From IMG/VR virus record IMGVR_UViG_3300031994_000100: a stretch of DNA of 64,000 bases; one strand, given 5' to 3'. The position numbers were made by a program, and so were the translations under genes. Within the stretch, counting starts at the first letter, position 1; each line of letters starts with the position of its first letter. This stretch comes from an uncultured virus (IMG/VR IMGVR_UViG_3300031994_000100). Its lineage: Duplodnaviria > Heunggongvirae > Uroviricota > Caudoviricetes. The notes beneath the pieces are model-generated. The model worked only from the letters and a program-made list of their open reading frames with translations. It was not told where the DNA came from and searched no databases. Below, piece after piece: positions 26,817 to 58,885 of the stretch.

Positions 26817-27020
26817 TATTGCTCCCTCCGTTCCTAAAGTGTTATTTAAGTGATTTCATATTTTGTACTCTTTAGAGTGTTTTCAATCCAGTTGCTCCAA
26901 GTGATGCGCAATAGACCGAAGTTCTAACGCAATGCGACAAAGAATGATACTAACGACGATAGCCCCAGAACTAATTATTAAACTGATAAGTGTCATTCTC
27001 ATCTCACTACCTTATGCTAT

Positions 27021-27308
27021 TCAATAATTAAGCTTTGTCCTTGCATAATATTCGGTTATTTCTGATAATGGTACGACTGTTACGTCTTTTACACACGTTT
27101 GTCCTTCGCAAAAATCACTTAAGAAACTTATTGTTTCATAATCAGAATCGCTTTGGCAAAAAACAACCTCTTCAAGCAATTCCCATTCATCATCATAATC
27201 ATAACTATATTTTTGCCGAAAAAATGCTACTACATTTTGTGGAAAAGTATTTTTCCAATATGCTCTAACCGCATCTGCGATATAGTCATAACTATTTTTT
27301 TCAATCAT
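27021..27308 (-). CDS. hypothetical protein (AT-rich block)
   Basis: 95-aa ORF. Confidence 0.6.
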   Translation of the reverse strand: MIEKNSYDYIADAVRAYWKNTFPQNVVAFFRQKYSYDYDDEWELLEEVVFCQSDSDYETISFLSDFCEGQTCVKDVTVVPLSEITEYYARTKLNY

Positions 27309-27448
27309 TTTCGCTTCACCGCCCGTATTAAAGTGTTATTTTAGTTTCAGCCCCGTTTCCGGGGCGATGCTACTGAAACGGGTCATTAACATCGTAATAT
27401 TTCCCGGTCATTTTATATCACCCCTTTCACGATGTAATAAGGTGTTAT

Positions 27449-27823
27449 TTAAATCGTTTTAATTGCTTGAACTATGTAATCGACAACTTCTTTTACTTGC
27501 TGAACTGTCCAAGTAACATTATCAAATGTTGCTGTTTTAGCTATAAGCATTTCAATACTAGTTGATTTTCCTGGAAGAAAGATCGACAATACGATCATAA
27601 GTAATCCAAGGATTCCAGCTATGATAGCCCATTTTTTAAATATTTTCATATAACACTCATTTCTCCTATATACTTCTACTTGATACACATTATACATCCA
27701 TCCAATTGTCAAGCCAACGAAAGTAGCTATGCATACTCCGCCTAAAATTCCAAAAACAGTTTGTGCAATACTTAAAACGTTAATCCAATAAAAGACTTGT
27801 GGGGCAATAATGTAGTTTGTCAT
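27449..27823 (-). CDS. membrane protein (AT-rich block)
   Basis: Two TM segments; stop overlaps a TTAAATAACAC site. Confidence 0.65.
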   Translation of the reverse strand: MTNYIIAPQVFYWINVLSIAQTVFGILGGVCIATFVGLTIGWMYNVYQVEVYRRNECYMKIFKKWAIIAGILGLLMIVLSIFLPGKSTSIEMLIAKTATFDNVTWTVQQVKEVVDYIVQAIKTI

Positions 27824-28016
27824 TTTTCTTCTCTTTCCTTTCTTGACGAAACATACTGGTCGATATATTTTTCAAGTATATCGGATACACATTCGTCTAG
27901 GCTTTGCTCTTTCAATTCCGCCAAATCTCTCAATATGCGAAAACTGCTACACATTAATTCGATTTCCATTGATTCCGTTATTCGTGGCATTGTTTATATC
28001 TCCCTTATGGTGTTAT

Positions 28017-28190
28017 TTATTTCTCGAAGTAAACGTTGAACAAATCTTTTAATTCTTCAACCCACTTTTTAGGGATTGACATATTTGCATCTGTGTACCG
28101 TTCAATTGCATCCAGTATGTCCTTTGCTCGTCTTGAATCATGAACCCATCTTGGCTCTAAACCAAGTGGAGGCTTTTTCAATTCACTCAT
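28017..28190 (-). CDS. small hypothetical protein (MSELKKPPLGLEP...)
   Basis: 57-aa ORF read by hand; GAGAGG RBS; junction sites on both sides. Confidence 0.55.
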   Translation of the reverse strand: MSELKKPPLGLEPRWVHDSRRAKDILDAIERYTDANMSIPKKWVEELKDLFNVYFEK

Positions 28191-28239
28191 CTTATTTACC
28201 TCTCTTGTCGTGTTAATTTAAATCAGAATGAGCACAAAC

Positions 28240-28350
28240 TGGCTGCGCCGGTGAGGATTTGCACCTCACAGTTCGAGATGGACGTGGGCCTGACGTCTCG
28301 AATCACTCCCACTGCTTTGCCATTGCGTTTACCTATTCCGCCACGGCGCA
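28240..28350 (-). ncRNA. tRNA-like RNA 1 (no canonical anticodon arm)
   Basis: 7-bp acceptor TGCGCCG/CGGCGCA + GCCA; D-arm GCGGAATAGGTAAACGC; T-arm GTGAGG-TGCAAAT-CCTCAC. Confidence 0.7.
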
Positions 28351-28419
28351 TGGATTAAGTGTTATTTCGAAAAAGAAATGAGAGTCCGCCAAATAGCGGA
28401 ACTCTCGTCCCGGTTCGTC

Positions 28420-28731
28420 TCACAACCTCGGCCCAGGAATCCATCTTTCAAGACTCTTGGGCAGCACGTGCCCTTTTGCATCGAAGACCATCACCGCGCC
28501 CAGGGCGGCCGCGACGCCGACGATCTTGAGCACCTCGACCCAGACTTCTTTAGGGATCTTCGCGTTACTCCTAAACGTTTCACGCATCTTGATCACCTTG
28601 TCAAGCTGGGATTCGAGCCGATCAAATTCATCACCGTCCGCATCCTCCATCCTGGCTGCCAGTTCAGCAGCCTTTCGATCCAGAGCAGCACAAACCTTCT
28701 GCTTTGCCCACCAGGTTTTCTTCTTTTTCAT
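28420..28731 (-). CDS. hypothetical cassette gene
   Basis: Lies between motif copy 28760-28784 and a terminator at about 28370-28407. Confidence 0.6.
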   Translation of the reverse strand: MKKKKTWWAKQKVCAALDRKAAELAARMEDADGDEFDRLESQLDKVIKMRETFRSNAKIPKEVWVEVLKIVGVAAALGAVMVFDAKGHVLPKSLERWIPGPRL

Positions 28732-28761
28732 ACCTGAATACCTCCTTTGTAATACGTTCCA

Positions 28762-29280
28762 TTAAGAAACCTGATTTTCTCGCGCATTTTCGGTCTCCAT
28801 AAGCTTCTTCTTCCGTCGGTATTCCCGGTTTCTGATCCGGTTGTCCTCGTTTGCTTCCCGTTCGTCGGCTCGCTGCCGAACAATCTCCTTCAGTGCCTTT
28901 ACGCCTCGCTCGCCCATGGCCACCGGTGTGTAATATCCACGCCGGTAAAGGTTTTCCACGTCGTTCATAACCGCGTTTGGCTGCCTGGAATACTGGTTGA
29001 CCGCCAGCGCGCTTTCGTAATCTTTAATTGCGCGTTCGTACACGGCTTTCACCAGGTTAATGGCGCCTTCGGTGCTTATGTCTTCAGGATGTTCAAACTT
29101 TTTATTGATCATTCGGCTGTTTTTGGTAAACCTTTTGTGTTCCCACGCTGATTCCGCCTCCTCCGGTGTGGAATAAAGCCTGGTCGCCAGCATGCATTGG
29201 CCGCATGTAACGAGCCATTTTTCTTTTTCGTATACTGACCTGCTTGCCTCTACAGGCCGTCCGCATTTGCAAAACTTCAT
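28762..29280 (-). CDS. zinc-finger protein (Lar-like N-terminus)
   Basis: CKCG..CGQC..TPEEAESAW. Confidence 0.55.
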   Translation of the reverse strand: MKFCKCGRPVEASRSVYEKEKWLVTCGQCMLATRLYSTPEEAESAWEHKRFTKNSRMINKKFEHPEDISTEGAINLVKAVYERAIKDYESALAVNQYSRQPNAVMNDVENLYRRGYYTPVAMGERGVKALKEIVRQRADEREANEDNRIRNREYRRKKKLMETENARENQVS

Positions 29281-29474
29281 CGCCTTTTCCCTCCTTTTGT
29301 CTTTTGCTCCATGAAAATATCCACCGGTGAGGATGACCGGAGCCGCTCAATTTCCATCACCGCTTCGCCAAAGGTTTTGAAGAAATTTCGAAAGCGCCCC
29401 TGTACATACAGGTCATAAATTTCGGATTTCTCCGTATAGCGGATTTCGAAATCATCAGCCGTCAGGTGATTCAT
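29277..29474 (-). CDS. hypothetical protein
   Basis: AGGAGG RBS. Confidence 0.55.
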   Translation of the reverse strand: MNHLTADDFEIRYTEKSEIYDLYVQGRFRNFFKTFGEAVMEIERLRSSSPVDIFMEQKTKGGKRR

Positions 29475-29487
29475 TTCATTCGCCTCC

Positions 29488-29976
29488 TTATCCGTCGATC
29501 AGACTGTCAAGAGAAACGCTGTTGCATCCGTTCGGATATCTCTTCAGGAAATTGTTCATCAGCTCGACGCCGGGCACGTTGATCCCGCCTAGCTCAGCAT
29601 AGAAAATATAATCTTTGCCGGTGAAGAACTGCCGTACATCCTGCGCGGGTTCCAGACAGAAAACGCGAATCTTGTCGTAGCTGTTGTCCCGGTATTGAAC
29701 CACCTTGCGCCCCCAGTTATCCGTATACTGCTTGAGAACAGTGAAGCGTGGAGATGTTTCCAGCATCTTGAGTGTGCGCTTCTCCTCGCGGATCTGGTCC
29801 TTCAAATCTTTCAGGGCGTTGAATATCACGGCTCTCGCCAGAGCCCGGTATGGCGCGTTCTCCATTTCGCTGCCGGGATTGGCTATAATGCGCGTCGATG
29901 CATCCCGTACGTACCTGTTGGCAGGGGAGTTAAAGTATTCCCAGTTTTTTGTTTTTTCATCTGCAGACGTGTTCAT
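29488..29976 (-). CDS. hypothetical protein
   Basis: AAGGAGG RBS. Confidence 0.6.
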   Translation of the reverse strand: MNTSADEKTKNWEYFNSPANRYVRDASTRIIANPGSEMENAPYRALARAVIFNALKDLKDQIREEKRTLKMLETSPRFTVLKQYTDNWGRKVVQYRDNSYDKIRVFCLEPAQDVRQFFTGKDYIFYAELGGINVPGVELMNNFLKRYPNGCNSVSLDSLIDG

Positions 29977-30020
29977 ACCCGATACCTCCTTATCTGTTGT
30001 AAAAAAGAAGAGAGCCCGGT

Positions 30021-30239
30021 TTACACCAGGTCCTCGACGGTCTGTTTGAACTTGTCTGCATTCTTTTTCATGGCCTCCATGGAAATATCCAGGGCCATAT
30101 CAGTATAGCCGGTCAGTAACTCTTTGGTCATCTTCTTTCCTTTCTCACTGCTCATCAGCTTGATCGCCATGTACCAGCTGAGCAAGGATCCGAGTCCGAT
30201 ACTTACCGCCATAACCACGATAAAGGCCAGAATATCCAT
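30021..30239 (-). CDS. small membrane cassette gene
   Basis: Follows motif copy 30277-30301; ends in a terminator. Confidence 0.6.
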   Translation of the reverse strand: MDILAFIVVMAVSIGLGSLLSWYMAIKLMSSEKGKKMTKELLTGYTDMALDISMEAMKKNADKFKQTVEDLV

Positions 30240-30339
30240 AAAAATCCCTCCTAAAATGTTTTATAGTTCTTGCTTCCATCAAAGGAGGTGTAAATTTCGC
30301 GAATGAAAAATGAAAAGGGGAGCCGAAGCTCCCGGTTCC

Positions 30340-30558
30340 TCAGTACACTTCATCTCTTATGTCCCGAGGTTCCTTTGGCTTCTCTCCCCATGCTTTGGGA
30401 TCGTCCAGCTTAAACAGTTTCCGGACCATACCGTTCACGCAGTTCGCTATTCTTCTGGACAGGTCGAGCATGGTTCCCAGCAGCTTCGGCACTGCTGCCA
30501 AAATTGCTATAAAAACCACGATATCCACCAGAAGTTTTGTAAACCACATAAACACCAC
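30340..30558 (-). CDS. small membrane cassette gene
   Basis: Follows motif copy 30586-30610. Confidence 0.55.
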   Translation of the reverse strand: MVFMWFTKLLVDIVVFIAILAAVPKLLGTMLDLSRRIANCVNGMVRKLFKLDDPKAWGEKPKEPRDIRDEVY

Positions 30559-30659
30559 TCCTTTTTCTGTTTTTAGTTTTCATCCCATTAAGCGAGGTGT
30601 TAAATTCGCGAAAAAAGCAAGACCAGCTTTTTCAGCTAATCTTGCTTTTTGACTTTTAT

Positions 30660-30860
30660 TTACTCATCTCTCAGGTCCTCCTCTTTCAGTCCCAGTTCTT
30701 TAGCTGCCGTCTTATACTGTTTATTTACCTTACACACGTCACACCGGTCCCTGCCTTCCCGGTTGCACATTGCACACCGGATGCAGCAGTTGTCCAGCCA
30801 TGTGTTCAGTTCTTCAACAGAATTAAACTTTGCTTTAAATTCAAACTTCATAGTCCTCAT
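30660..30860 (-). CDS. Cys-rich cassette gene
   Basis: Follows motif copy 30893-30917. Confidence 0.55.
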   Translation of the reverse strand: MRTMKFEFKAKFNSVEELNTWLDNCCIRCAMCNREGRDRCDVCKVNKQYKTAAKELGLKEEDLRDE

Positions 30861-30969
30861 CCTTTCTGACTTTTATGGGGAGTCACCCCTCTCACTATGA
30901 GGGCAGTATTTGACGCGAGGCGTTACATTGAGGCAAAAAGAAAGCGGCCTGTTAAAGCCGCGATCTCTC

Positions 30970-31119: not shown

Positions 31120-31214
31120 GTTATTCACCTCCATTATGAGGCCGGTAAATGACGCGCCGCGTTACTTTTGGCAAAAAAGAAAAGACCCGCTTTTTCAGCG
31201 AGTCTTTGCTCCGG

Positions 31215-31493: not shown

Positions 31494-31556
31494 AGAATCA
31501 ACCTCCTCAAATTTTGTGGATCACTCCATTAAAAGAGGTGATTTCTTCGCGAGTCA

Positions 31557-32927: not shown

Positions 32928-32930
32928 TTT

Positions 32931-35301: not shown

Positions 35302-35430
35302 ATATAATGCTTGTAGGCTTCGAACCTACGTCTCCCATCCGTAGATGGGTATCCTACCATTAGACGATTGTTCTGGGGCTAACGTTCGGCCTAACCGGCG
35401 CCTCCCCTGCGTTTATACCGCGCATTATAT
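35302..35430 (-). ncRNA. tRNA-mimic RNA 3 with cUACGg tetraloop in place of the anticodon loop
   Basis: D-like CGTCTAATGGTAGGAT; CCCATC-TACG-GATGGG; T-arm GTAGG-TTCGAAG-CCTAC; 9-bp closing stem then T-run; own motif copy at 35447-35471. Confidence 0.6.
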
Positions 35431-35788: not shown

Positions 35789-35871
35789 AAAAGCACCTCC
35801 TTTTTCACTAACATAGGTGTTATTTCCGCGAAAAAAGAGAAGGCCCGCAATTTCTGCGAGCCGTATAACTC

Positions 35872-39778: not shown

Positions 39779-40131
39779 TTCGATAGTGCGGGGCTTGTTT
39801 CAATTGCCGTGAAGAAGTAAGCCCCGTTAGCTGAAAAAAGAAGAACGGCGAAGATAGTTCCGAACTGTTTATCTGCTATAAAAGAAGTAAGCCCGGATAG
39901 CTTTCGCCTTGGGGAGACCGCGGAGATAGATCAGAACTGTCATGTTCATTTTTCATATATTTGTAGTAAGTTCTGATAGCTTCCGCGGAAGTAATGTGAG
40001 GGAGGATAGTTCTAAACTGCTTATCCAAAATAAAAGAAGTAAGCCTGGATAGCTCTCCCTCCGGGTGTGGCCGAAAGCGCGCCGCTGCCTTTTATCAATG
40101 TTTAAGAGAAGTAAGCGGCGTTAGCTGGCCA
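39779..40131 (-). ncRNA. tandem array of five structured hairpin RNAs
   Basis: Units 39779-39835, 39847-39908, 39918-39988, 39998-40061 and 40068-40131 share AGCTAW..TTACT(T/A)C..CA(A)G..CTWTC with different but paired stems. Confidence 0.8.
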
Positions 40132-40150
40132 AAGCAAAATATAATTCAGT

Positions 40151-40303
40151 TATGCGGGTGAGGATTTGCACCTCACATAAAGAGCATTTCAACGGCCAAC
40201 TAGAGACAACAGGTGGCAACGTGCCGTAGCTCTTCTTAGAAGATAAGACGTATGTCATATCAACCGGCATAGTGTAAGCGTCTACCTGTTCCGCCACCGC
40301 ATA
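40151..40303 (-). ncRNA. tRNA-like RNA 2 with about 95-nt central insertion
   Basis: Acceptor TATGCGG/CCGCATA; D-arm GCGGAACAGGTAGACGC; T-arm identical to RNA 1. Confidence 0.7.
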
Positions 40304-40312
40304 ATGTCTTAT

Positions 40313-40359
40313 TTTAAATCGTTTTAATTGCTTGAACTATGAAATCGACAACTTCTTTT
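40313..40359 (-). repeat. 47-bp orphan copy of the 3' end of gene 27449..27823
   Basis: Matches 27448-27494 with one mismatch. Confidence 0.85.
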
Positions 40360-42074: not shown

Positions 42075-42855
42075 CCCTCCTTTTTATCGAATCCACATTT
42101 CCTCTTTCCGTCCGTAATCGGGGCTGCTTTCGTCCATGATTGTATAGGCGGAGAAATGGAAATATCCCTTGTTCTTCAACGCCTTGATCTCCTCGTCTGA
42201 CGGCTCGATCACAAAGGCATAGTCATTCATCATCACCGGACTCGTCAGATACCGGATCATAGAAATCCTCCTTCTCCGCAGGGTGCTTATCCCGGAATTT
42301 ATGCTTTCGGTTTTCTTCACACCAGGGACATCCGCCGTGGTTCCGGCAGGACATGAAAAATCGTTTGGAGCCTCCGTATGCCTTGCGCTTTTCCTTCCCG
42401 TATTTAATGGCCTTGTCGAGAGACACGAACATCACCTCTTGTTTTGCTTGAGCGTTCTTTATACATTGTAGGTTTCCTGCTGTCGTCATTGGCAGGGTAG
42501 GTGAGACAGTCGTTGCAAGGATCTTCTGTCTCCTTAACCTCATAGTGCTCGCAGGTAGGACAATATTTTTGATAGTCAACAAGATGCTGCATGTTTATTC
42601 ACCTCGGTATTCTCTTTTTTGGTAAACGCCGTTTCCGGGTTAGATACGATGTTTTTTGAACACGAATCTCAGCTTTTTGCGCGTAGACGATAGCTATTTC
42701 TCGTAAATAATTAATAACAGATTCTTTGTCGAGACCGCATTTTTTTATTCCGGCTATGATACTGCAATATGACGCTTTTGTTTGTTCTCGAATTTCTTTT
42801 AGCAATTCATATTCTTGCGGTGTTAATTTACGCGCCATAGCGTCATCTTTATCGC

Positions 42856-43095
42856 TCATTCTACTTCTCTCTTTTCCAACCATTCGTTGACCTCGGACAT
42901 CCAATCGGGATGTAAGCGGCCAAGCTCTTCTGCTTTGGCTTCCTCGGCATCGCACCACTTTTTAAAGGCTTCTGCTTTTTTGCGGTATCTGGCTTTTTTG
43001 TACTGCTTCCGCTTGCGCGGGTTATGCTTGTCCGTCTGGCGAGTAAGTCTGTCTAACCACTTGCTCATGCTTTTCGATCTTCTTTCAGTGTGCAA
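42856..43095 (-). CDS. basic hypothetical protein
   Basis: Likely start at MSKWLDR. Confidence 0.5.
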   Translation of the reverse strand: MHTERRSKSMSKWLDRLTRQTDKHNPRKRKQYKKARYRKKAEAFKKWCDAEEAKAEELGRLHPDWMSEVNEWLEKREVE

Positions 43096-43242
43096 CAGTG
43101 TTATTTAAGTCACGACCACGGTCTATTTCCAATAACCGCTTGTGCTTCCTCATAGCACAGCTTTCGGAACCACTTCCATTTGCTGAAAATCCGGTCGATC
43201 ATTCTATGACGAATGATAAATCTAAGAATACCGCGAATGAAT

Positions 43243-43728
43243 TTATGCATCGTTTACACCTCGGTGCTTATTTGATTCACATTCTTCGCAAACGAACAAC
43301 CGCTTGCCATTAAGTTTCTTCCCGCATACTACACAATTTCCGTTAGCAACGACTTCTGCTGTATCTTCCGGCTTTTCCGGCAACGGCATCCAATGAGTAG
43401 GTTCGTGAATGGCCCCGATAGCACCATATACGTTACCGTCCGTTCCAGCCCAGAATCCTTCTCCGAATGAAGTGTAGTATGCCAGTCCAACATACCCGAT
43501 GTATTCTTCGTTTTCGTCACTATACGGCGGAACATATACGAGGACCGGAGGAAATTGTTTGTCCGGCAATCTTTCCTTGACGCTGATCCATCTGTTTACA
43601 GATAACTCTCCTGCGTTAAATCCATTCGCAAACATCCAATCGCCGAAGCCTTTTATTTGTGGGTCATCCATGAACTTAATAAAGTCAGCGCCACCGACTT
43701 TGTAATGGTCTGGATTGGTATCTTTCAT
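43243..43728 (-). CDS. DUF551-like protein
   Basis: WISVKERLP..PTHWMPLPEKP. Confidence 0.75.
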   Translation of the reverse strand: MKDTNPDHYKVGGADFIKFMDDPQIKGFGDWMFANGFNAGELSVNRWISVKERLPDKQFPPVLVYVPPYSDENEEYIGYVGLAYYTSFGEGFWAGTDGNVYGAIGAIHEPTHWMPLPEKPEDTAEVVANGNCVVCGKKLNGKRLFVCEECESNKHRGVNDA

Positions 43729-43830
43729 GATATAAAACTCCTATTTAAGTTATAAGGCGTTCTCCAACTATTACGCCAGCGACTGTAGTTATAAAACCGA
43801 TCGCTACAATGCATAAACCGATTAGTATGC

Positions 43831-44190
43831 TCACTTTGCATCCCCCTTCGTTTTAATTAAGCGCCGACTCTGAAGGGATATGCGAATACTATCACCTTCG
43901 GCAACGATTTCTTCGCCAGAAACACGAATAATAATGTCGTTTAAAAACGCATCTCTGCGTCTAAGCGCTTCATCATTAGGGTGAATCATATTCTTCACAA
44001 AAGCGGCCGTCTCGTTTTGATCTAAAACCGGCTTTTCTTCTTTCAACGGGCATTCTTTTGGCCGAGCATCGTAATTATACAATTCTTTGTTTGCTGCACA
44101 TGGGCATGCAAGTCCGACCACGTCGGAGAGGCCAATAATGTCACATTCGTGGCAATTGTTTGGCATTGATACATCTGGCAGGCAAACCAT
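43831..44190 (-). CDS. hypothetical protein (MPxxCxxC..RPxxCPL type)
   Basis: GGAGG RBS. Confidence 0.55.
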   Translation of the reverse strand: MVCLPDVSMPNNCHECDIIGLSDVVGLACPCAANKELYNYDARPKECPLKEEKPVLDQNETAAFVKNMIHPNDEALRRRDAFLNDIIIRVSGEEIVAEGDSIRISLQSRRLIKTKGDAK

Positions 44191-44969
44191 GGTTAGACCT
44201 CCATTCTTAACGCTTTCTCAAGGTATTATTTAAGTTATGTTTGTTACGATGCCTAAAGCAACAAGCAATGCTGATTTCCAACCGCGGATATATTCTTCGT
44301 CTTCATTTATAGCTTTATCTGCAGCTGCAATATACTCCTCGATTTCCTTAATGGCTTCGTCTCTAGTCATGTATTAAACTCCTCCACCTTTTTTACTCAT
44401 GGTTCTCTGTCTTTCACCACATCTGTCAGAACTTCAAGCAACTCTGCAATGGTGTGGTTCCGGAGAAAACTGTCGATTTCATCATACAGTTCTTCTTTTG
44501 CATATCCGGTTGATCCGTCCTCGCCATATCTTCTCATTGCGCTGTCTCCCTTCCGCATCGTAGTTAATGTGTTATTTTCCAGTTTTTTTCAAAGCCTTTT
44601 CGTGTGTCATAAGGGATCGCAATCGCATCCATGTCCCTTCTTGAAATGCAAATACGACCTTTGCTGTCGTAAAGCATCCATAAATCGTAACTTTCTCCTT
44701 GCCGGAACCCACATGAACCGTTTTTACCGAGAAAGACAGCTCTAATTTCAACAATCTTAGGCTTTGCCATACGATGCACCTCCTTGCTGCCTTTCCGTGT
44801 TATCTAAGCGACAATCATTTCATCGGAATCTGGATGTTCAACAGTACAGTTCAGCGTTTCGAAATCTGTAGTAAACACTGTTATTTCAGCGTGTTCGATT
44901 CTTGAATTGTCTGGGATTTTCTTGTCGATTTCTTCTAACAATTCGTTTTTACTCATTGTGTTTACGCTC

Positions 44970-46729
44970 CTATTTAATTTTTCCATCTTTGCAGAAAAAT
45001 GTTGGTTCCTTCGGCCGCATTGAATTATTGCACCACGATGTTTCCGACGAATACCATTTGCAATTCTTGCACCGAACAATTGCTTCTGGCGCGTCCTCGA
45101 TCAGTTTCCTCGCGCCGCCCGGAGGCCCCTGATGAGCCTTGTCATACGCTTCAAGTAATGCGGATCGGCTAATTAAATCACCGCCATTCCTCATCGGCGC
45201 AGAATCTTCGGGCTTTTTGTTTGTGTACGAGTTGTACACGGCATCTTCTAAAGCCCATTCATAATTTTCTGGCACATCTTCATTTTCAAACCAATGTCTT
45301 TCTGTCAAGCCCATTTCACTTCACTGCCTTATGTTGCGGGCATCAAAATGCTCTGCATGGGATAATGATTTGCGTAATCCAACAAGCGAAGTCTTTCTTT
45401 TAAGTCTTCAATTGTTTGCGCCTGCTCTTTCAGTAGGGCAAGAGCGTCCGAGCAAAGCTCGTCGTTGCAACTTTGTTCGTCCGGCAGGTTATGATACGGA
45501 CAATCCTCACATTTCGATGGAGGGAAGTAGCATATCTCAAGCCCTTTGATAACCTTTTCCTTGTCCATTCACTTCACCGCCATTCCTGCGTTGGTTTTGC
45601 AACGCAAATCCTCGCTTCTATTTCAGTAACATCTTCTATTGGCGCATACTTATTCTCGCTACTAAAAAATTCCACAAATCCTTCGGCAACGAGTTTTCTT
45701 GCTATCCTGTTCGCCATATCTGCTTTCACAAATTCGATTTTACGAACGAGATAATGTGGAACAGTGTTTCTTATCGCAAGCGTTTCGAAATCTCTGTGAA
45801 TATTTGTAACAGGAACGGGAAATTTTAGTGCTTGTTCTGCTATGATTCGTCTTTTGATTTCTCTATACAAACGATTTTGATTGCGCTTGTATGATTTTTT
45901 GCTCATCTCAACTTCACCGCCTGTCTTTCGTTTCCGGATTCATAAACCAGTTAATATAACTATCTTCGCATTCCGGGCATATATATAGATCATCTCGCGC
46001 AGACCATTCAGCATGCTTTTTCCAGGGTAAAAGTCTTATACTTGCATATAGCGTCCTATGTGTAATCCATCCATATTCTTCCGTTATCTCTTTACCGCAC
46101 CTGTCGCAAAACGTTTTAGTCATTCCTACTCCACCGCCTTTCTTCGCATTACTTCTATTCTTTTCTAAATACGTATTTATATGTTTCCCACAATTTGCAA
46201 AACACTTTACGTAAGCACGCTACGAAAAATATCAAAACATAGCCCGGTAAAAGTAATAACGACATTGCAACAATAACTATAGTTAATCCAGCAGAATTAA
46301 GTCGGTCTTCATTGTTTTCATAGAACACAGTCGTATACCAAAATGCTGTTTTAAGTGACAGTTCGTCATCGTCGCCTAATGCAAACATCATTTGTAAAAA
46401 ACCGCCTATAAAACCACCCATTAAAATCCAAAAAGCTAAGATCCCTGTTTGTAAATCATTCATTTACGCTTTACCGCCCTTCCGCATTCACCACAAAACT
46501 TGCTTATGTAACTGCGTCCGTAGCCGTCATCGTATCCTATAATATTTTTGCACCTCCCGCACAGTAGAATTCCATGATCATTTATACATTCAACCGCTTC
46601 CGGCTCTTTCAACTGGTCGAGAGCATCCTGAGCTATTTGTTTAACCAATTCTGTATCAGAATAACCGTCGAGAATATTGTCGTTACAGTAATTGATTAAT
46701 TTTTCAAGTCGTTCGGCGATTCGTGTCAT
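44970..46729 (-). other. block of short AT-rich Cys-containing phage ORFs (44970-45314, 45329-45568, 45574-45906, 45914-46123, 46155-46463, 46460-46729)
   Basis: Tightly coupled ORFs with CxxC motifs; several starts preceded by (G)GCGGTGAAG/GCGGTAAAG-like sequence. Confidence 0.55.
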
Positions 46730-48126: not shown

Positions 48127-48396
48127 ATGCGGATCATCGATTGCCAAAAATATAATAAATCGATCGCCGAAGAAAGTGCACCTTCTACAAAAAGTCACGT
48201 AGCGCTTTATTTGACGGTCAACGAACAAAGACAATTGCGAATCCACGAAGTGTTACAAACCTGTCTCGGGTCTGCAAAACCTTTATTCTCCAGTTCGAAT
48301 CTGGATGGCACCTCCAAAGTTATTGAGATTACTGCGTTTCAGCTTGGTCGGCGGGACGCAGTTTTCTCTTTTTTGGCGTTCAGACCTTTACCCTAA
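48127..48396 (+). CDS. small plus-strand protein convergent with the integrase
   Basis: GGAGG RBS and TATAAT at 48079-48084; the only plausible plus-strand gene found. Confidence 0.45.
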   Translation: MRIIDCQKYNKSIAEESAPSTKSHVALYLTVNEQRQLRIHEVLQTCLGSAKPLFSSSNLDGTSKVIEITAFQLGRRDAVFSFLAFRPLP

Positions 48397-48399: not shown

Positions 48400-49326
48400 T
48401 CACAGGCAAAGCGCAGCATACATCTCATCAAAGCCATCTCCGTAGAGGTGAATGTAGGTATTATACGTCACCTGAACGGAACTGTGTCCCATAAGCCGTG
48501 ATAGTATTTTTACATTCACACCCTTGTAGAAGCAATTCGTCGCAAACGTATGTCTGAACGCATGCTCGCCATAGTATGGAACTCCGGCTTCGGAGCAGAT
48601 CTTTTTAGTTTGGTACATCAGCTGCTTATAAGAGTAGCGACGCCCATTATGTTCAAAGACCCACTCCGTTTGCCGGCGTTCCTTCAAAATTTTCAGAATG
48701 GCCATGGCGCGCTTCGTCAACGGTACCAGGCGATTGCTTGACTTTGACTTCGGAGAATCCTGATAAAGCGCCTTCTTATTCGAGGTGGGGAAGACGATCG
48801 TGGCATGTACATGGAGCTTGTTTTTCTCCATCTCCACATCGCTCCATTTCAAAGCGAGCAGTTCGCCCGATCGCAGCCCCGTCTCGATAAGAAAGGCAAC
48901 AGCGAGATAACCAGTTTTGTCAGGGTTACTCAGGACCAGAGAAAGCAGTCTATCCTGATCTTTCTGATCGTAAGCGGCAATGTCCTTGGTCTTCTTCTGT
49001 ATTTTAGTTTCTGTAGGCAGTCTGACACCGATCGACGGGTCCGCTTTAATCAGCTGCATGGCCGCTGCCTGTTTCAAAGGCGAAGTGACAATTCGCAGCT
49101 GCTTTTTCACCCCGCTCATGCTATACCCGGAGTCTACGAGATCGTTAACATACCGTTGGATATCGAAAAAAGTGATAGCGCCAATAGGTTTCTTAGCGAT
49201 CTCGTAAGACTCGAGGGCGGTCCTTGATACTTTCAGTCGCTCGTAAGATGCAGCTTTGATCGTATTGCGTTTGAAAGTATCAAGCCAGGTGTCTATGAAA
49301 TCCAGCAAGATAGTTGATTCGTCCAC
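48400..49326 (-). CDS. int: tyrosine recombinase/integrase
   Basis: TGLRSGEL, PKS, HAFRHTFAT, LMGHSS and TYNTYIH catalytic set; GTG 49326 after GGAGG (ORF open to 49419). Confidence 0.92.
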   Translation of the reverse strand: MDESTILLDFIDTWLDTFKRNTIKAASYERLKVSRTALESYEIAKKPIGAITFFDIQRYVNDLVDSGYSMSGVKKQLRIVTSPLKQAAAMQLIKADPSIGVRLPTETKIQKKTKDIAAYDQKDQDRLLSLVLSNPDKTGYLAVAFLIETGLRSGELLALKWSDVEMEKNKLHVHATIVFPTSNKKALYQDSPKSKSSNRLVPLTKRAMAILKILKERRQTEWVFEHNGRRYSYKQLMYQTKKICSEAGVPYYGEHAFRHTFATNCFYKGVNVKILSRLMGHSSVQVTYNTYIHLYGDGFDEMYAALCL

Positions 49327-49386
49327 TTTGGTTTTTCCCTCCTGCAAAGTGGATTCGCAATTGTCAAGGTGCAAAGGTTCGACCGA

Positions 49387-49416
49387 AGTATAGCTTTTTT
49401 GAATAAACACTGTCAA
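49387..49416 (-). promoter_or_regulatory. sigmaA-type promoter for the integrase
   Basis: TTGACA-N18-TATACT on the minus strand. Confidence 0.55.
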
Positions 49417-49457
49417 CACCTCCTCGTTAAGAAGAGGTGATTTTACGCGAGCGAGAA

Positions 49458-51497
<2,040 letters not shown>

Positions 51498-52199: not shown

Positions 52200-52222
52200 T
52201 TGTTCAATAAACCTCCTGTAAA

Positions 52223-53836
52223 TTAAATAAATTGAAGAGTTTCGGTCGTCGGGTCGACCGTAAGACTGATAGGGGTGATCAATCCGCTGGAATCAACATA
52301 AAGCAGTTTTCCGGAATTGATAGCCCCTAAATTCTTATCAACTTTTTCATCAATAATATTCGAATCAATGTTTGACTGGATGACTGCCCAATCCAGCCCG
52401 GATGCCTGTGTGCCGTCCGTAACACAGATGATCATATCGCCGACTTCGCAAGCCTGTCCGGCATAGGTTCCGGCGGTTGCGACCTTATAGGTCCACCCGA
52501 CTTCATGTGTATCTGGGAGTGCAGTCACCGTTCCACCGGCACCGAGCGTGCCTTTGAAAACCATCGCGTCATTGGCTGCAAACACTTGATTGACGAAGCT
52601 TTCCGTGGCGAGCTTGTTGCCGGCAGCATAAAAATCTCCGGCCGCCTTAACTTTTCCATCCCATTGCACCGAAAACGCATTATGCCGTACCGTATCGGAT
52701 GCGCCGTTTCCGATAATGAAAGCTTCGGCGCCATCCGAGAGGTTATACCACTTGGAGCTGTTCCATACACTGTCCGAATTGGGCGTTTTACAGCCGTATA
52801 CATTTCCGCTGTTTTTTACAATAGCTCCTGCGACATAACTCTTTCCGGGAATCCAGGCTTCGATATCCGAACCGGCCGCCGGTGTTGCGGCAACGTTGTA
52901 ACTACCATGTGCGGACAGGCCTTTTGTATCAGCAATCGTGTTGTGGCCGCTGGCATGGGAATATTGCCCAGACGCTGTACTGTAGTATCCTTCTGCGTGG
53001 GAATATTGTCCGGAAGCGGTTGTTGCCCCTCCCTCTGCGTGAGAACCCTGACCAGAAGCGGCCGTGCTCATACCCTCCGCATGAGACCCAAAAGCAGTAG
53101 CCGACGTTATGTTTCCTTCGGCATGCGCGGCAGTGGCAGACGCTGTTGTTTGACTTCCTTCAGCGTGAGAGTATCTGCTGGACGCATTCGTATTTGCACC
53201 CTCGGCATGAGCAAAATCACCGGAAACGGTCGTTTGTCCGCCTTCCGCGTGGGCACAATACCCGGATGCAGTAACCTCGTATCCGAAAGCAAAACTGTAA
53301 TCCCCGACATCGGTTGACTCTTTTCGGCCGCAGCTCAATGTCGTGTCGAGAACTGTATTCATTCGGTCCGCTTTACCGGAAATATTCTGATGTTCAGTGA
53401 GAAAACCGCTGTCGTTTGCCAGATCGGATGTTTTTGTCGGAATACTCGGTTTGTCCGTCAGATCGTTGTAGCTGATGATTGGCGCTGACGCGGATGTCCC
53501 GCTCGCACAATTTATAAACCAGGCGGTCCCATCGTAAGTAAAAGCCAGCACCGACCCGGCTGTCCACGAAGAGCTTTCATCAACTCCGACGTGGGTATTC
53601 TCATCCTGATAAATCGGCAAATCGCCGGTTGAATTGACGTTCATGGTCGGGTTTTCGGCCGTGTTGGTATTTGTAAATTTTACCCAGATGGTTACGCCGA
53701 CGATCAACTGATCAAAGTCTGGGCATGATACAACCTTAGCCGCAACGTCGGCCAAGGTTTCGCATGTGCCATAGAGGCTCGACCCAACGGGGACAGGGCT
53801 TCCTCCGTCAATGGAAATCCGAGCTACATAGCTCAT
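52223..53836 (-). CDS. tail fibre with YadA-head-like (xHAEG) repeats
   Basis: About 9 14-aa repeats of type ASGxxSHAEG; SYNDLTDKPSIPTKTSDL motif. Confidence 0.8.
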   Translation of the reverse strand: MSYVARISIDGGSPVPVGSSLYGTCETLADVAAKVVSCPDFDQLIVGVTIWVKFTNTNTAENPTMNVNSTGDLPIYQDENTHVGVDESSSWTAGSVLAFTYDGTAWFINCASGTSASAPIISYNDLTDKPSIPTKTSDLANDSGFLTEHQNISGKADRMNTVLDTTLSCGRKESTDVGDYSFAFGYEVTASGYCAHAEGGQTTVSGDFAHAEGANTNASSRYSHAEGSQTTASATAAHAEGNITSATAFGSHAEGMSTAASGQGSHAEGGATTASGQYSHAEGYYSTASGQYSHASGHNTIADTKGLSAHGSYNVAATPAAGSDIEAWIPGKSYVAGAIVKNSGNVYGCKTPNSDSVWNSSKWYNLSDGAEAFIIGNGASDTVRHNAFSVQWDGKVKAAGDFYAAGNKLATESFVNQVFAANDAMVFKGTLGAGGTVTALPDTHEVGWTYKVATAGTYAGQACEVGDMIICVTDGTQASGLDWAVIQSNIDSNIIDEKVDKNLGAINSGKLLYVDSSGLITPISLTVDPTTETLQFI

Positions 53837-54536: not shown

Positions 54537-54549
54537 TGTTCATTCCTCC

Positions 54550-55011
54550 TTACGCAATCCTGAGCCTGGTCACCTCAACGTTGAGGTTCCGCAGATTCAA
54601 CGCCGGGGCAGGCGTCGTCTCTGGCGTTGCAGATACGCTTGCGTTCTCAACAGAAACCGTATAGCAACAACAGCTCGGCACATCAATAATGGCGAAGCCG
54701 CTCACGTTCCAGTAATTGTCAACGGCTGCCGGAGTGGCAGCTGAAATGCTGGTGGGAACAATCTCGCCGTCGATTGCCAGAGCAAGCTGAATCTCTCCGA
54801 CGGTTCCGCCGGTAGGCACAGCGATATTGCCGTCATAGGAAACGCGATATCTCGCAAACGGCTGGCATCCCCAATTGGTTCCACGAAGGGTCAGAATCCC
54901 GCTTCCCGGGCGGTGAAGAACCATGCCACAGTTGCAGCGATTCCCGTCGTTCAAAACAGCGGACGCTCCGGGCTGTACCAGCTGCACATCGTTATAAACA
55001 AACTCTGCCAT
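54550..55011 (-). CDS. beta-rich hypothetical protein of the conserved phage module
   Basis: HRPGSGILTLRG, GNIAVPTGGTVG and CCCYTVSVEN. Confidence 0.7.
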   Translation of the reverse strand: MAEFVYNDVQLVQPGASAVLNDGNRCNCGMVLHRPGSGILTLRGTNWGCQPFARYRVSYDGNIAVPTGGTVGEIQLALAIDGEIVPTSISAATPAAVDNYWNVSGFAIIDVPSCCCYTVSVENASVSATPETTPAPALNLRNLNVEVTRLRIA

Positions 55012-55050
55012 GTTTATCCTCTCCCTGTTAAATATCAGTCATAAAGACCA

Positions 55051-55086
55051 AAAAAGAGGCTGCTTCGCCCGAACGAGGCAGCCTCT
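55051..55086 (-). terminator. Rho-independent terminator
   Basis: AGAGGCTGC..GCAGCCTCT followed by a T-run on the minus strand. Confidence 0.7.
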
Positions 55087-55112
55087 AAATGACTAAATTC
55101 CGAGGAATATAA

Positions 55113-55910
55113 TTAAGTTCCGGCGTACCCACCGCATCCGCCATAGCCAAAGCCATTGCCACAGCAGTTGGGATTCTGCACCACGTAAGCAGGCCGCGGA
55201 ACCGGAGCCAGATACTGCTCAAGGGCAGAAGTCTGTGCTTCATTGTTCGCCAGAATCTGCGCAGTCTGCGCGCCCTGAGACGCAGCAAACCGCAGCGCCT
55301 GATTGTCGCTCCTAGCCTGATCCAGCGCGTTCTGCATACCGGCAATGCGATTCTCGTAGTTCTGACGGATTCCGTCGAGCTCCAGCTGGCACAGCTTGTC
55401 CATCACGGCCTTGCTGTTCGCGTCGCAGTTAGCCCGGGTAGCAGCAGCTTCCTGAGCAATGGCAGTATTCAGGCCGGCCGTGGCCAGACGATTCTCGCAA
55501 CAGCAGTTCTGGAAGGAAGACTGCAGTGCAAAATTCTGGTTCATATCAGCCATCTGGCGGTTATTCGCGGAAATTTCAGCCTGAGCGAAACCTCCGGAGA
55601 TCGCCTGATTCACGCCCGCAAACCCGGTGGCCATGCCGTTATTCACACCGGCAAAGCCGTTGCACAGAGCGGTCTGAATACCGTTGATCCCGGTCGTCAC
55701 AGCACTCTGATCGAAACCGCGCTGAATATCCGCGCCAACAAATCCGCCGCCGTTGCCGGCGCCATTCCCACCGAAGCCGTTGCCCCACCCGAGAATAGCC
55801 AGCAGAATAATGATCCACCAGGCGCTGTTGCCGCCAAACATTCCGTCGTTTCCATATCCGCCATAAGCGGGAGCCACGGGCATGTACATTCCATTATTTT
55901 CGGTAGTCAT
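55113..55910 (-). CDS. Gly-rich membrane protein with CCCENR motif (conserved phage module)
   Basis: WWIIILL TM segment, IQRGFDQ, QNCCCENR and PAYVVQNP. Confidence 0.75.
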   Translation of the reverse strand: MTTENNGMYMPVAPAYGGYGNDGMFGGNSAWWIIILLAILGWGNGFGGNGAGNGGGFVGADIQRGFDQSAVTTGINGIQTALCNGFAGVNNGMATGFAGVNQAISGGFAQAEISANNRQMADMNQNFALQSSFQNCCCENRLATAGLNTAIAQEAAATRANCDANSKAVMDKLCQLELDGIRQNYENRIAGMQNALDQARSDNQALRFAASQGAQTAQILANNEAQTSALEQYLAPVPRPAYVVQNPNCCGNGFGYGGCGGYAGT

Positions 55911-56170
55911 CGTTTAAAACATCCTTTCTATATTCGGTAAGTTCTTTTGAGCAATAATCCGACAAAGCTAATTAGCCCAATGGAACCACCGCCTTCCTTA
56001 TAGGTTTTTGCTAGGAAATAGTGTTTTTATGCTAAAATCAGCGTTGCTGACTTAACATCATGAAATTGTCGCTAAGCGACGTAAACAAGTCATCTGCGCC
56101 GTTTACGTAAATAGCGACTCTTCCGTTAAAGCGATTTAGTTTTAGTGATTGATGTGATTTAAAGTGTTAT

Positions 56171-56437
56171 TTAAGTCACAACCTGATTCCAGAACTCAGA
56201 CTTGTCGTGAAGGATCTGAATACCATTTTCCAGACAGTATTCATGCTCTTTGTAGCAATCAACATCGTCTTCCCATTCATCCACAAACCAAGCACAATCA
56301 GCTTTTTCAACGGAATCGACAACAGTGAGCTTCCCTTTTGCTTCCTTTTCCGCTTCTGCAACCGCTTTTTCGGTCTGCTCTTTAATGACCCCATATGTTT
56401 TGTACTTCCGATCAATGCTAACATACAGTTTTTTCAT
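56171..56437 (-). CDS. short DUF4406-like protein, resembling 19963..20301
   Basis: MKKLYVS..ADCAWF..W..C..EH..GI pattern. Confidence 0.55.
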   Translation of the reverse strand: MKKLYVSIDRKYKTYGVIKEQTEKAVAEAEKEAKGKLTVVDSVEKADCAWFVDEWEDDVDCYKEHEYCLENGIQILHDKSEFWNQVVT

Positions 56438-56452
56438 ATCTCATTCACCCCT

Positions 56453-58885
56453 TTATGCGCTGACAACATTCGGCAACCACTTCTTCATTCCAGCCCAGAT
56501 CGTTCTTGCGCTTTGCCTTGCGCCAAGATCGTTCATGTGGATATTGTCCAGAAGGTATTGTGGCGTATTTTCTGAAATTTCACTTTCTTTATTTTCCCAT
56601 ATGATATGCACACCAAGGCTTTCAACACATTTTCCGATTTCCTCATAATATTCAAACTGTGTCTGATTGTTAGTGTTTTTTGCTGTTGATGCAGTGATCC
56701 CTTTGCCATAATGGTCAAGCACAACAAACAAGCTAATATCTGCATTCTGCGAATAGATATAGTTGATTGCAGATCGCACACAGCCGCATACAGATGTTTC
56801 AGCAGTATCATACCAGTTGCCGAGCTTATCATAGTTATGATAGTAATCGTTCACGAAGCCTTCAAGAATACAGACACGTTTGTTGGCAAATGATGCATAC
56901 GATTTAATTCTGGCGAGAATATCAAGTGACGGATAGTCTTCCCGAGCGAGAATTGTCGCGGAACCGATACCCTGATTGTCAAACGTAATCCCGGAAAGCG
57001 CAGGAAGATATTGCAGATAACCGCCTGTTGTCTGCGCCCGATATGTCAAACTTGTGCCGAAAGCTACGCCTTGCAACCAATACCATTCTGAACTACTGTC
57101 TATATCGCTTTCGATATCTGCAAGCCTTTCGCTCAGAGTGTTAAACTCTCCACGGGCATTAACAACTTCTTGAACATTAAATGTAAACGGAGCATCAACT
57201 GAATCGAGCGGCTCATAACTTGAATCAGTTTCATACACGGTAAATTCAGTGTATGTTGCAATGCCGAATATAAATCTTGCGTAGTGTGCATTTATCGGCA
57301 TCAAAAATTTCGCTGTACGGTCGCTTTGATACGATATTTGTCCGCCATAAGATTCATCTTCGTTGTACCACAGCGCGAAAACGTTGTTGAAGTTCGTCTT
57401 GTAATAGTGAGCTCCTTCTACTGGAATCAGTTCAGTTTGCCCTAAAGTCGCCGATTGGTGAAAGGTTGTTCCATCACTGTAATAACCATTCATCAGGTTA
57501 TCTTCGCTATTTTTATTGAAAAGATTTAACGGCTGATAATACTGATAAAGTCCGGTCAACTTGGACAGATCATAAACACGCAGTTCCTCACAGTGTACAT
57601 AAAATGATCCAAGGATCGAAAGCACTATCGGAATCCTACAGTAAACTGCTCCATCCAGCGGAATATAGTATCCAGCCTGTTGAGGATCAATGTACCCGAT
57701 AAAATTCTTGTTTTCGTCATACCACAAAGAGAATGCCGTAGATACATTATTTGTGGTAATTTTCATAACACCGTTTATCCAGATGTAATCGGTCATGCCA
57801 ACAGTTGAGGATGAAACAAAGGTATTTGTTCGATCATAATACCCGTTGTAGACATTCCCTTCGGCATCCGGATCAAACATATTGTAGTATTCGGAACCAT
57901 CTATACTTAACAGCCCAAACTTCTTAAGCAATTCCTGACTTTTCCGAAATACTTGTTGTGTCATTTCAAGGGGAATCTGCGGATTATACGGGACATAAGG
58001 TAGCAATGTTGTTCCTTCGTTGACCATAAAGGAATTTAGAATTTGCTTATTAAACGGTATCCGAACGAAGTATGCCCCATCGGGTGCTGTTATATACCCG
58101 TCAACAGTAAAATCTGTGTATTTGATAAAGGAATCGTTTGAGTTTTTAGAATACCAAAGCACATAGCCGTCTGACGATTTGTTGAAGTTGTAATTCCTTC
58201 CGGGAGAAACGCTGATAAAGCCTGAGCTTCGTATGCTGTTACTAGGTACAAGTGTGTTGGTATGATTATAATATCCAGTAGTTGTAATGTCTGGATCGTC
58301 TTTATTGAATAAATTTGTTACGCCATCGAAAAACGTTGTTCTCTCAGGGTCGATTTTTAACTGTGCATTGTCATTTAATGCGCTCTTTAAATCACTAATC
58401 TCATCCTCAAAACTCACAGCATCCCAATGCGCCGCAGTCCACGCTTCCGACGTGGTAATCTCCTGGTTTGCCACGTACGGCTTATCAGCATAAAGGCAAT
58501 AAGTCCCTTCAGCAACCGGATAGGTCAAATCCTCATACTTGGTAGCGATAATAACCGTATCTCCGCGATCGCCCTTTTCTCCGGTCGCTCCCGTCGCACC
58601 GGTGGGAATGCCAAAAGTAAGCTTCGGAGCTCCGCCGACAAGTGCAGAAGTGACTGTCGGAGAACTGCCTTCGGGAAGTTGAGTAGCGTCGGCAGATACC
58701 TGAACCATATTCGTCCACACCGTCCCGCCATCGCCATCCGAAGCCAGTACCTGACCTTCCGTACCATCCGTGCTCGGCTTATCTAGCTTTACGCTGTCAA
58801 GTTCTGTGATCGACTCGCGGGCAGTTTCATCCTTAAAGTTATAAACCGTTCCCGACAAAAGTCTGATTTTACTAATATCTGCCAT
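56453..58885 (-). CDS. tail/receptor-binding protein with repeated beta-domains and C-terminal SGNH hydrolase
   Basis: Short collagen segment; three NLF..GYY..WY..YxR repeats; SGNH blocks FGTSLT, NQGIGS, GFVND and DNIH. Confidence 0.75.
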   Translation of the reverse strand: MADISKIRLLSGTVYNFKDETARESITELDSVKLDKPSTDGTEGQVLASDGDGGTVWTNMVQVSADATQLPEGSSPTVTSALVGGAPKLTFGIPTGATGATGEKGDRGDTVIIATKYEDLTYPVAEGTYCLYADKPYVANQEITTSEAWTAAHWDAVSFEDEISDLKSALNDNAQLKIDPERTTFFDGVTNLFNKDDPDITTTGYYNHTNTLVPSNSIRSSGFISVSPGRNYNFNKSSDGYVLWYSKNSNDSFIKYTDFTVDGYITAPDGAYFVRIPFNKQILNSFMVNEGTTLLPYVPYNPQIPLEMTQQVFRKSQELLKKFGLLSIDGSEYYNMFDPDAEGNVYNGYYDRTNTFVSSSTVGMTDYIWINGVMKITTNNVSTAFSLWYDENKNFIGYIDPQQAGYYIPLDGAVYCRIPIVLSILGSFYVHCEELRVYDLSKLTGLYQYYQPLNLFNKNSEDNLMNGYYSDGTTFHQSATLGQTELIPVEGAHYYKTNFNNVFALWYNEDESYGGQISYQSDRTAKFLMPINAHYARFIFGIATYTEFTVYETDSSYEPLDSVDAPFTFNVQEVVNARGEFNTLSERLADIESDIDSSSEWYWLQGVAFGTSLTYRAQTTGGYLQYLPALSGITFDNQGIGSATILAREDYPSLDILARIKSYASFANKRVCILEGFVNDYYHNYDKLGNWYDTAETSVCGCVRSAINYIYSQNADISLFVVLDHYGKGITASTAKNTNNQTQFEYYEEIGKCVESLGVHIIWENKESEISENTPQYLLDNIHMNDLGARQSARTIWAGMKKWLPNVVSA

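Follow-up and report, generated by a model that had tools for sequence, protein, structure and literature searches.

A family of 16-bp sites as likely crossover points of gene-cassette and fibre-tip exchange among phages of gut and rumen Clostridia

We analysed a short repeated motif in a 64,000-nucleotide (nt) stretch from an uncultured virus (IMG/VR record IMGVR_UViG_3300031994_000100; the whole stretch is hereafter called the window), where it lies at gene junctions between positions 26834 and 58390. Comparison with other phages indicates that the copies belong to a family of 16-bp sites of the form TTAAA-N6-TTTAA, which appear to be the places where small genes, tRNA-like RNAs and tail-fibre tips are exchanged. 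That the sites are exchange points is very probable from the sequence comparisons, and it is likely that they are the crossover points of a gene-cassette exchange common to unrelated phages of gut and rumen Clostridia. The window covers a portion of a tailed-phage genome, and nearly all its genes lie on the minus strand; its content includes three DUF6353 genes, ThyX, collagen fibres, a holin and an endolysin, and its primase-polymerase is 49-51% identical to homologues from Arthrobacter and Gordonia phages. We presume the phage to be 'Oengus-like'. The sequencing runs that contain the window, flagged as its possible sources, are listed as sheep gut metagenomes, and both the ribosome sites and the places where the cassettes recur suggest that the host belongs to the Clostridia.

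The original prediction listed twelve minus-strand copies of the motif, and at all twelve coordinates the motif or a variant is found on the coding strand. The core AAATAACAC has nine exact matches in the window, 9/9 on the minus (coding) strand, an excess over the AT-rich background: the mean is 0.42 (maximum 3) in shuffled sequence and 0.61 (maximum 3) in 500 shuffles of 300-nt blocks that preserve local AT content. Similarly, TTAAATAACAC occurs eight times with up to one mismatch versus 0.89 expected. The predicted overlap with the upstream stop codon is seen at five of the twelve copies (56159, 44792, 44218, 28005 and 27437), where the stop forms bases 2-4 of the left arm; at one further copy (44564) it lies in the right arm and at another (43093) just ahead of the site. 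The blocks bordered by the sites are indeed AT-richer, with G+C of 0.367 (26850-28353), 0.431 (42815-44977) and 0.408 (56175-58374), as compared to lowest values of 0.441, 0.454 and 0.455, respectively, in backbone windows of equal length, and each of the two tRNA-like RNAs begins within 4 bases of a site end, in line with the claim that sites precede them. The inverted arms flank a 6-bp asymmetric centre, which agrees with the core layout of tyrosine-recombinase sites (centre of 6-8 bp); thus far the proposed layout stands, but the arms are within two mismatches of TTAAA/TTTAA in only 5/12 copies, and many window copies must therefore be regarded as worn. The claim that the sites are unrelated to a 25-bp motif of the same phage likewise needs amendment: it holds for eight of the nine exact cores, whereas the core at 35817-35825 sits within a copy of that motif, the middle of which reads AAA(T/A)(T/A)ACAC. 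Finally, the catalogue was right about the places of the motif but missed both the swapping of tail-fibre tips by the same site family and its several centre classes; the window holds, beyond the twelve, two sites with a TAGGAG centre, one in-frame site with a GAGCGC centre and one right half-site, all window sites being in direct orientation. Weak matches at 42815 and 44873, both inside genes, were set aside. PHROGs or Pfam name three of the 15 small genes scanned at sites, none with a function.

The breakpoints seen in relatives support exchange at the sites. A search with the exact 16-mer recovered 86 stretches in viral contigs, many by chance and some in polar arrays, and in these phages homology ends at sites, as the original prediction required. 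Fifteen site pairs are homologous on one side only, up to the site and including non-coding bases. Positions 26835-27016 of the window are 90% identical to G002 and G003 (a 150-kb phage of 39% G+C), the likeness ending at the site with different genes thereafter; G002 and G003 themselves are 99.2% identical over 46.7 kb, and their sole structural difference begins at a site, its other end being a ribosome site that is a worn site in one of the two. There are eight clusters of complete site-to-site cassettes, each lying between differing neighbours. The site-to-site segments (n=86) have a median length of 195 nt, with one open reading frame filling 56 of them, and 123 of 124 sites in 29 loci lie on the majority strand; the picture is one of polar arrays whose cassettes mostly hold a single gene and move as a unit. 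Near-identical contigs show 68 distinct breakpoint places, of which 10 fall within 8 nt of a site versus about 1.6 expected, although one of the ten lies in an AT-rich pair and is likely due to chance; these are per-cluster values, the pooled count (19/305) being dominated by one family. Loci of the RNA-ligase gene (the gene behind site 26834), used as a control, mostly lack the motif, and a scan of a genome collection gave mostly single matches, in AT-rich genomes. The nearest record to the window spans only the window end, and no relative of the gene 28420-28731 was found.

The window contains three centre classes, TAACAC, TAGGAG and GAGCGC, and conservation covers just the 16 bp and, weakly, a 'taac' to the left of them, unlike the 11-bp XerC/XerD arms of dif modules. 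When sites are oriented by their centre, mixed centre classes occur in 8/17 clusters that share upstream sequence as against 2/22 that share downstream sequence (p 0.011, or 0.021 after dropping one same-contig pair), and identity in the upstream-shared pairs is 1.00 and 0.96 at centre bases 1-2 and 0.64 at base 3. On these comparisons the centre appears to travel mostly with the downstream gene, which would place the crossover in TTAAA-TA and have unlike centres recombine. Such crossover between unlike centres is moderately probable, and a precedent for crossover between mismatched overlap regions is presented by IntDOT (PMC2817482). In 98 of 118 sites an ATG stands no more than 10 bases behind the TAGGAG centre, which is thus a ribosome site, while in mixed arrays TAACAC comes last in 21/26 cases versus 11.9 expected, the order expected if TAGGAG cassettes are placed ahead of a resident TAACAC site.

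The same site family borders the exchangeable tips of tail fibres. In the window one site lies within the fibre gene (58375, site A) and one after its end (56159, site B), and a site occupies the latter place after fibre genes in other phages as well. G+C is 0.515 before site A and 0.408 after it, and DNA homology of four contigs (L319, L320, L325 and L341) to the window spans the fibre anchor and ends at site A. One pair, L295 and L316, is 96% identical outside sites A and B and unrelated between them, and another, L013 and L299 (99.9% identical), breaks at site A. The GAGCGC pattern has 28 matches, 23 of them in frame as L-K-S-A-L within long open reading frames, mostly with lower G+C behind; in 12 of these 23 a second site coincides with the stop codon or lies no more than 40 bases from it, and the other five matches represent one unrelated gene. 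In protein-fetched loci the fibre joint uses a TTA codon in 32/38 cases versus 377/2822 of Leu-Lys pairs, which speaks for a constraint at the level of the DNA. At some fibre joints in-frame sites of different class are paired 33 bases apart (L369:7896-7944, L036:1865-1913, L313, L417 and L438), possibly as an adapter or as an 11-residue coiled-coil repeat.

As to the enzyme, the local integrase, which had been named as a possible driver, is not supported in that role: it is 24-27% identical to four of eight integrases from other site-bearing phages and has no match to the other four. It scores 53.6 bits on an XerA-like profile, as against 260 for family members outside the profile, and is probably a lysogeny integrase rather than the cassette enzyme; immediately behind it lies the sequence that can be read by eye as a tRNA 3' half (48262-48315). 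A second kind of recombinase, 325-347 residues long, armless and with XerA as its best match, is encoded directly beside tip cassettes. These XerA-like recombinases score 210-221 bits on NF040815 (cut-off 220), have XerA and XerD as their closest solved relatives, and keep the catalytic R, K, H, R, H and Y invariant in 6/6 members. In loci fetched by protein alone, with the four seed loci excluded from the counts, perfect sites number 27 in 76 viral loci (3-4 shuffled) and 18 in 80 metagenome loci (0.8 shuffled), whereas 80 control loci hold 2 versus 3.8 shuffled. A site lies within 700 nt upstream of the XerA-like gene in 26/65 loci, as compared to 3.7 in shuffled sequence and 19/552 control windows; the centre at this gene is six bases long in 45 cases, as against 1-13 cases for other lengths, which are at chance level. 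In 34 genome loci TAAA-N6-TTTA occurs 46 times beside the gene versus 11.8, many of the copies being alternately inverted. Two gut contigs, L491 and L493 (99.96-100% identical), show an inversion between two such sites beside the gene, and this ties the XerA-like enzyme to the site, in a Rin-like shufflon. That the cassette enzyme belongs to this armless XerA-like family of other phages has good probability on the strength of these associations. The family is found in 30/151 sampled genomes of one family, in 1-3 copies, and is thus, in this sample of genomes of unstated completeness, not a core gene. Multi-segment inversion shufflons of fibre tips are present in several gut prophages (L491, L492, L493, L495, L498, L590, L599, L600, L602, L605 and L606), in which the XerA-like gene itself lies within an invertible segment and the sites read in frame as L-N-x-N-L. 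Separately, several large rumen-type phages encode short tyrosine recombinases that apparently lack the N-terminal DNA-binding domain (L588, L589, L089:3435-4145, L154 and L156).

Taken together, we propose that a cassette begins at the centre of one site and extends to the left arm of the following one. This arm would often give the upstream gene its stop codon, whereas the centre would belong to the downstream piece and provide it with a ribosome site in the case of TAGGAG, another stop in that of TAACAC, or, within fibre genes, an open frame (GAGCGC, GGAAGA and others). The XerA-like recombinase, of about 330 residues and encoded by other phages or prophages, would act in trans on the window phage and, like IntDOT, need no more sequence identity than that of the left arm plus centre bases 1-2. 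Cassettes would move as circles or via double crossover between co-infecting genomes; free circles are somewhat doubtful. The window phage would be a recipient, with arrays at 26834-28369 and 43093-44977, a stray cassette at 40301 and a tip cassette at 56159-58390.

Several observations weigh against this proposal. The motif itself was the bait for most loci, the ranking of the enzyme loci was based on similarity to a protein that had initially turned up next to a site, and there is overlap between the viral and the metagenome loci of this kind. Further, 58 of the 68 breakpoint places are off-site, 28 of them in one gut phage family, and many cassettes have a site at just one end, those at 27016 and 44383 of the window ending at a ribosome site or half-site. 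The contigs L357 and L441 break 89 nt beyond site A. In the closest fibre pairs the centres are equal or 1-2 bases apart, which also fits an ordinary need for centre identity, and five-base arms are short for a tyrosine recombinase, those of dif having 11. The window, which covers only part of the genome, lacks the XerA-like gene, as do six complete site-bearing records (G003, G005, G007, G008, G009 and G011), so that action in trans has to be assumed. Of the runs used as read data, X1 and X2 are possible sources of the window, and X4 and X5 agree row for row and contribute short fragments only. In these data no exact one-cassette deletion was found among the 15 joints examined of 31, and no cassette circle was seen. 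An X2 joint linking TAGGAG sites in register (44964 to 43735, with one extra base, at depth 8.7) was not counted as a circle; it may stem from another phage because the likeness threshold was 88. The gut family with the many off-site breakpoints is of interest in its own right, genes being gained and lost very often at GGAGG ribosome-site microhomologies, at 28 distinct places in about 10 kb (members L010, L016, L018, L020, L023, L026, L040, L044-L046, L055, L066, L078 and L080).

That family shuffles genes without the site, and it provides an argument for an alternative in which the sites are merely linker sequences, spread for their stop codon and ribosome site, and exchange proceeds by homologous or microhomology recombination without a dedicated enzyme. 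The one microhomology-type end of many cassettes points the same way, as this route certainly makes the second end of many of them, and so do the six complete records that lack the recombinase. Yet when centre classes differ just seven bases (TTAAATA) are in common, the inverted arms and six-base centre are kept in all three settings, the in-frame fibre sites supply neither a stop nor a ribosome site, and the sites cluster, with inversions, beside one recombinase family; we hence consider the linker explanation unlikely. Less probable still is that the driver is the local integrase, a host Xer or one of the small recombinases consisting of the catalytic domain only, even though the local integrase retains all catalytic residues, every searched site-bearing record has some tyrosine recombinase, two of five records have a second, short one, and action in trans is required in any case. 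The integrases are only 22-43% identical among themselves where they can be aligned, while the site is the same in all, and a tRNA-like T-arm word lies just downstream of five of eight integrases. A host Xer is disfavoured by the scattered distribution of the exact 17-mer, whose 101 matches in the genome collection include a second site in only six loci, unlike the one per chromosome of dif, and by the limited presence of the XerA-like family in genomes.

The strand polarity of the motif, its places ahead of ribosome sites and the AAA-T-A-ACAC look that it has in common with the 25-bp motif could instead speak for a transcription or RNA signal, such as an MrpR-type operator, a promoter box of the phage or, ahead of the tRNA-like RNAs, a processing site, and the binding of MrpR to SPBRE is a precedent (PMC10516654). 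However, the flanks have no conserved promoter-like element or RNA hairpin, nothing being conserved within 50 bases upstream of 66 and 75 sites; copies stand 100-250 bases apart and also within fibre genes; and a recognisable site lies directly ahead of only 4/18 listed tRNA-like RNAs. A signal would also leave the breakpoints, inversions and class order unexplained, and we regard it as very improbable.

With site-specific cassette exchange as the preferred interpretation, the comparison to known systems can be drawn more closely. The original prediction of an integron-like gene capture is supported with respect to recombinase-type cassette junctions, but the integron is an analogy only, there being neither IntI nor attC. 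Resemblances to integrons, including attC clusters in phages (PMC9892861), are the polar arrays of one-gene cassettes, the stop codon within the site, the downstream piece that brings most of the site, and the little identity at the crossover; the attC hairpin, GTTRRRY core, IntI and attI/Pc platform of integrons are all lacking here. The candidate enzymes score 51-88 bits on TIGR02249 (cut-off 265) and the local integrase 37; the 15 window sites share no hairpin, unlike attC sites with their hairpins of 55-140 nt, only 6/90 fold tests reaching z of -2 to -2.5, most of these beside terminator-like hairpins; the site consensus is devoid of GTTRRRY; and no attI with Pc was found beside an integrase, the six complete site-bearing records having no gene of the family at all. 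Moreover, the site is 16 bp long, symmetric, and also works in frame inside a gene.

A nearer parallel is the Rin shufflon of Bifidobacterium and Eggerthella prophages, in which an armless Xer-like recombinase neighbours a receptor-binding gene (PMC6109161, PMC8778435). One crossover site lies within that gene and another behind it, and the N-terminus is constant while the tips vary. A Rin-like layout is seen in the gut contigs L491-L498 and in the XerA-like genome loci. In the window there is neither an armless recombinase beside the receptor-binding gene nor a set of spare tips between inverted sites; the former is present in related phages, and the latter in L491-L498, with the alternating sites in the genome loci suggesting it there too. 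Rin differs in that it acts inside a single genome, where stored tips are inverted at an asymmetric repeat of 8-11 bp (PMC6109161, PMC8778435), whereas here the sites are direct with unlike centres, the tips come from other genomes, arrays of small genes occur too and the enzyme is often absent in cis. Host Xer/dif sites measure 28 bp, XerC and XerD each having an 11-bp arm; in Acinetobacter, mobile XerC-like/dif-like systems reportedly include an element-borne Xer-like enzyme. The host Xer is a core gene, unlike the XerA-like family. The mobile Acinetobacter modules are alike in being bordered by Xer-type core sites whose centre is 6 bp long, but those sites have long asymmetric XerC/XerD arms and use host XerD (PMC11014353), as against the short symmetric arms and direct arrays of the phage system. 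IntDOT of CTnDOT (PMC2817482) is comparable in that mismatched overlaps recombine if 1-2 bases match at the first cleavage point. MrpR of SPbeta, too, involves a repeated intergenic motif bound by a protein of the tyrosine-recombinase fold, but that protein is without catalytic residues and represses (PMC10516654), whereas both enzymes considered here keep the residues and the motif marks breakpoints. We found no description of the site or system in the literature, in a search that reached few subscription papers and no supplements.

Table 1. Sites, cargo and related features of the window
Feature	Position	Strand	Remarks
Site A, TTAAA GAGCGC ATTAA	58375..58390	-	in frame (D-L-K-S-A-L-N); joins anchor to tip of 810-aa fibre gene
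Tail-fibre-like protein, 810 aa	56453..58885	-	~165-aa anchor and exchangeable tip; PHROG 5240 tail fibre, E 5e-10
88-aa gene inside tip cassette	56171..56437	-	stop codon falls in left arm of site B
Site B, perfect TTAAA TAACAC TTTAA	56159..56174	-	closes tip cassette
Local tyrosine integrase	48400..49410	-	catalytic residues intact
tRNA 3' half with GCA anticodon loop, read by eye	48262..48315	+	likely attP; no Rfam match
Site TTAAA TAGGAG CGTAA	44962..44977	-	centre is ribosome site of 50-aa gene 44804-44956 and contains upstream stop
Worn site TTAGA TAACAC GGAAA	44792..44807	-	with stop TAG
Worn site GAAAA TAACAC ATTAA	44564..44579	-	gene behind, 44401-44553, 91% identical to L076
Right half-site (..GGAG TTTAA)	44374..44389	-	in L527 and L551 same cassette begins with near-full or full TAGGAG site
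Site TTAAA TAATAC CTTGA	44218..44233	-	terminates 46-aa cassette
Site TTAAA TAGGAG TTTTA	43733..43748	-	run X1 contig departs from window exactly here into different gene
Site TTAAA TAACAC TGTTG	43093..43108	-	upstream cassette common to L516 (81%), only as far as site
Worn site ahead of tRNA-like RNA 2	40301..40316	-	45 bases upstream are a copy of cassette end at 27437
tRNA-like RNA 2, cargo	40147..40302	-	acceptor, D and T arms, long insert
Copy of 25-bp promoter-like motif containing AAATAACAC; not a site	35812..35827	-	6/10 arm bases mismatch
First site of array 1, CGAAA TAACAC TTAAT	28354..28369	-	left side like start of 25-bp motif
tRNA-like RNA 1, cargo	28244..28350	-	between sites 28354 and 28205
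Worn site	28205..28221	-	
Site ATAAA TAACAC CATAA	28005..28020	-	with stop of 57-aa gene
Site TTAAA TAACAC CTTAT	27437..27452	-	with stop of 124-aa gene
Site TAAAA TAACAC TTTAA	27328..27343	-	follows 93-base mini-cassette containing hairpin
Last site of array 1, TTAAA TAACAC TTTAG	26834..26849	-	run X1 variant contig ends at 26834

Some of the features in Table 1 merit comment. The tip of the 810-aa fibre probably ends in an SGNH/GDSL hydrolase, with GDSL neighbours in the Atlas (score 0.94) as a lead. At site 44218 the upstream DNA of L527 is 92% identical, but that contig has a TAGGAG centre and a different gene behind it. The left-side likeness of site 28354-28369 to the 25-bp motif would be compatible with a possible role as an entry point. 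ARAGORN and Rfam call neither of the tRNA-like RNAs (28244-28350, 40147-40302) nor the tRNA half, and the folds of these RNAs are not unusually stable (z about -1). Such RNAs form a widespread family, measured at 102-185 nt, in which acceptor, D and T arms are present (T loop TGCAAAT) and the anticodon arm is replaced by an insert that varies; further members are found in L037, L043, L061, L085, L297, L337, L360, L401, L414, L527, L536, L551 and L559, some move as cassettes, and a possible third, partial copy lies near 35410 in the window (Rfam tRNA match 35313-35365, E 0.24).

The window has further features besides the sites. The 25-bp motif (TTCGCG AAA.T.ACAC ... TTAATG) has about 15-20 minus-strand copies between 17718 and 49450, mostly after terminator-like T runs and before ribosome sites; with just about 14 bases from TTCGCG to a -10-like hexamer, the motif may combine an activator box with a -10 element instead of forming a standard -35/-10 promoter. 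A 65-bp repeat (97% identical) is present at 49456-49520 and 52221-52285, where two tail-associated genes (679 and 537 aa) have their 3' ends, and short non-coding repeats (AGAAGTAAGC..., 33-56 nt) at 39813-40140, downstream of tRNA-like RNA 2, are possibly a structured RNA or an origin. The region 45329-46463 consists of small low-G+C genes joined by GGCGGTGAAG-type linkers without a site, and one X2 contig appears to skip from 45556 to 46158 between such linker-joined genes. Beside array 1, 23604-26816 encodes an adenylosuccinate-synthetase-like gene, two unnamed genes and an RNA-ligase-like gene.

Phage mosaicism is usually ascribed to homologous or illegitimate recombination. By contrast, the sites described here would provide a short, countable mark for the exchange of accessory genes and host-recognition tips between unrelated phages, with a specific enzyme family named for it. 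In its broadest form, for which the chances are about even, the proposal is that one XerA-like family recombines minimal 16-bp sites with unlike centres in trans, resulting in a phage-wide cassette economy distinct from integrons: the centre would double as an expression signal and leave the joints translation-ready, phages without the enzyme would draw genes, tRNA-like RNAs and tips from a shared pool, and the same family would act as an invertase in human-gut prophages. This suggests a function for the 'second integrase' that is common in Clostridia prophages. A small recombinase able to accept mismatched centres and to produce in-frame joints would, in addition, be valuable as a tool. Such a site-specific route to mosaicism and host-range change is testable with one gene and two 16-mers.

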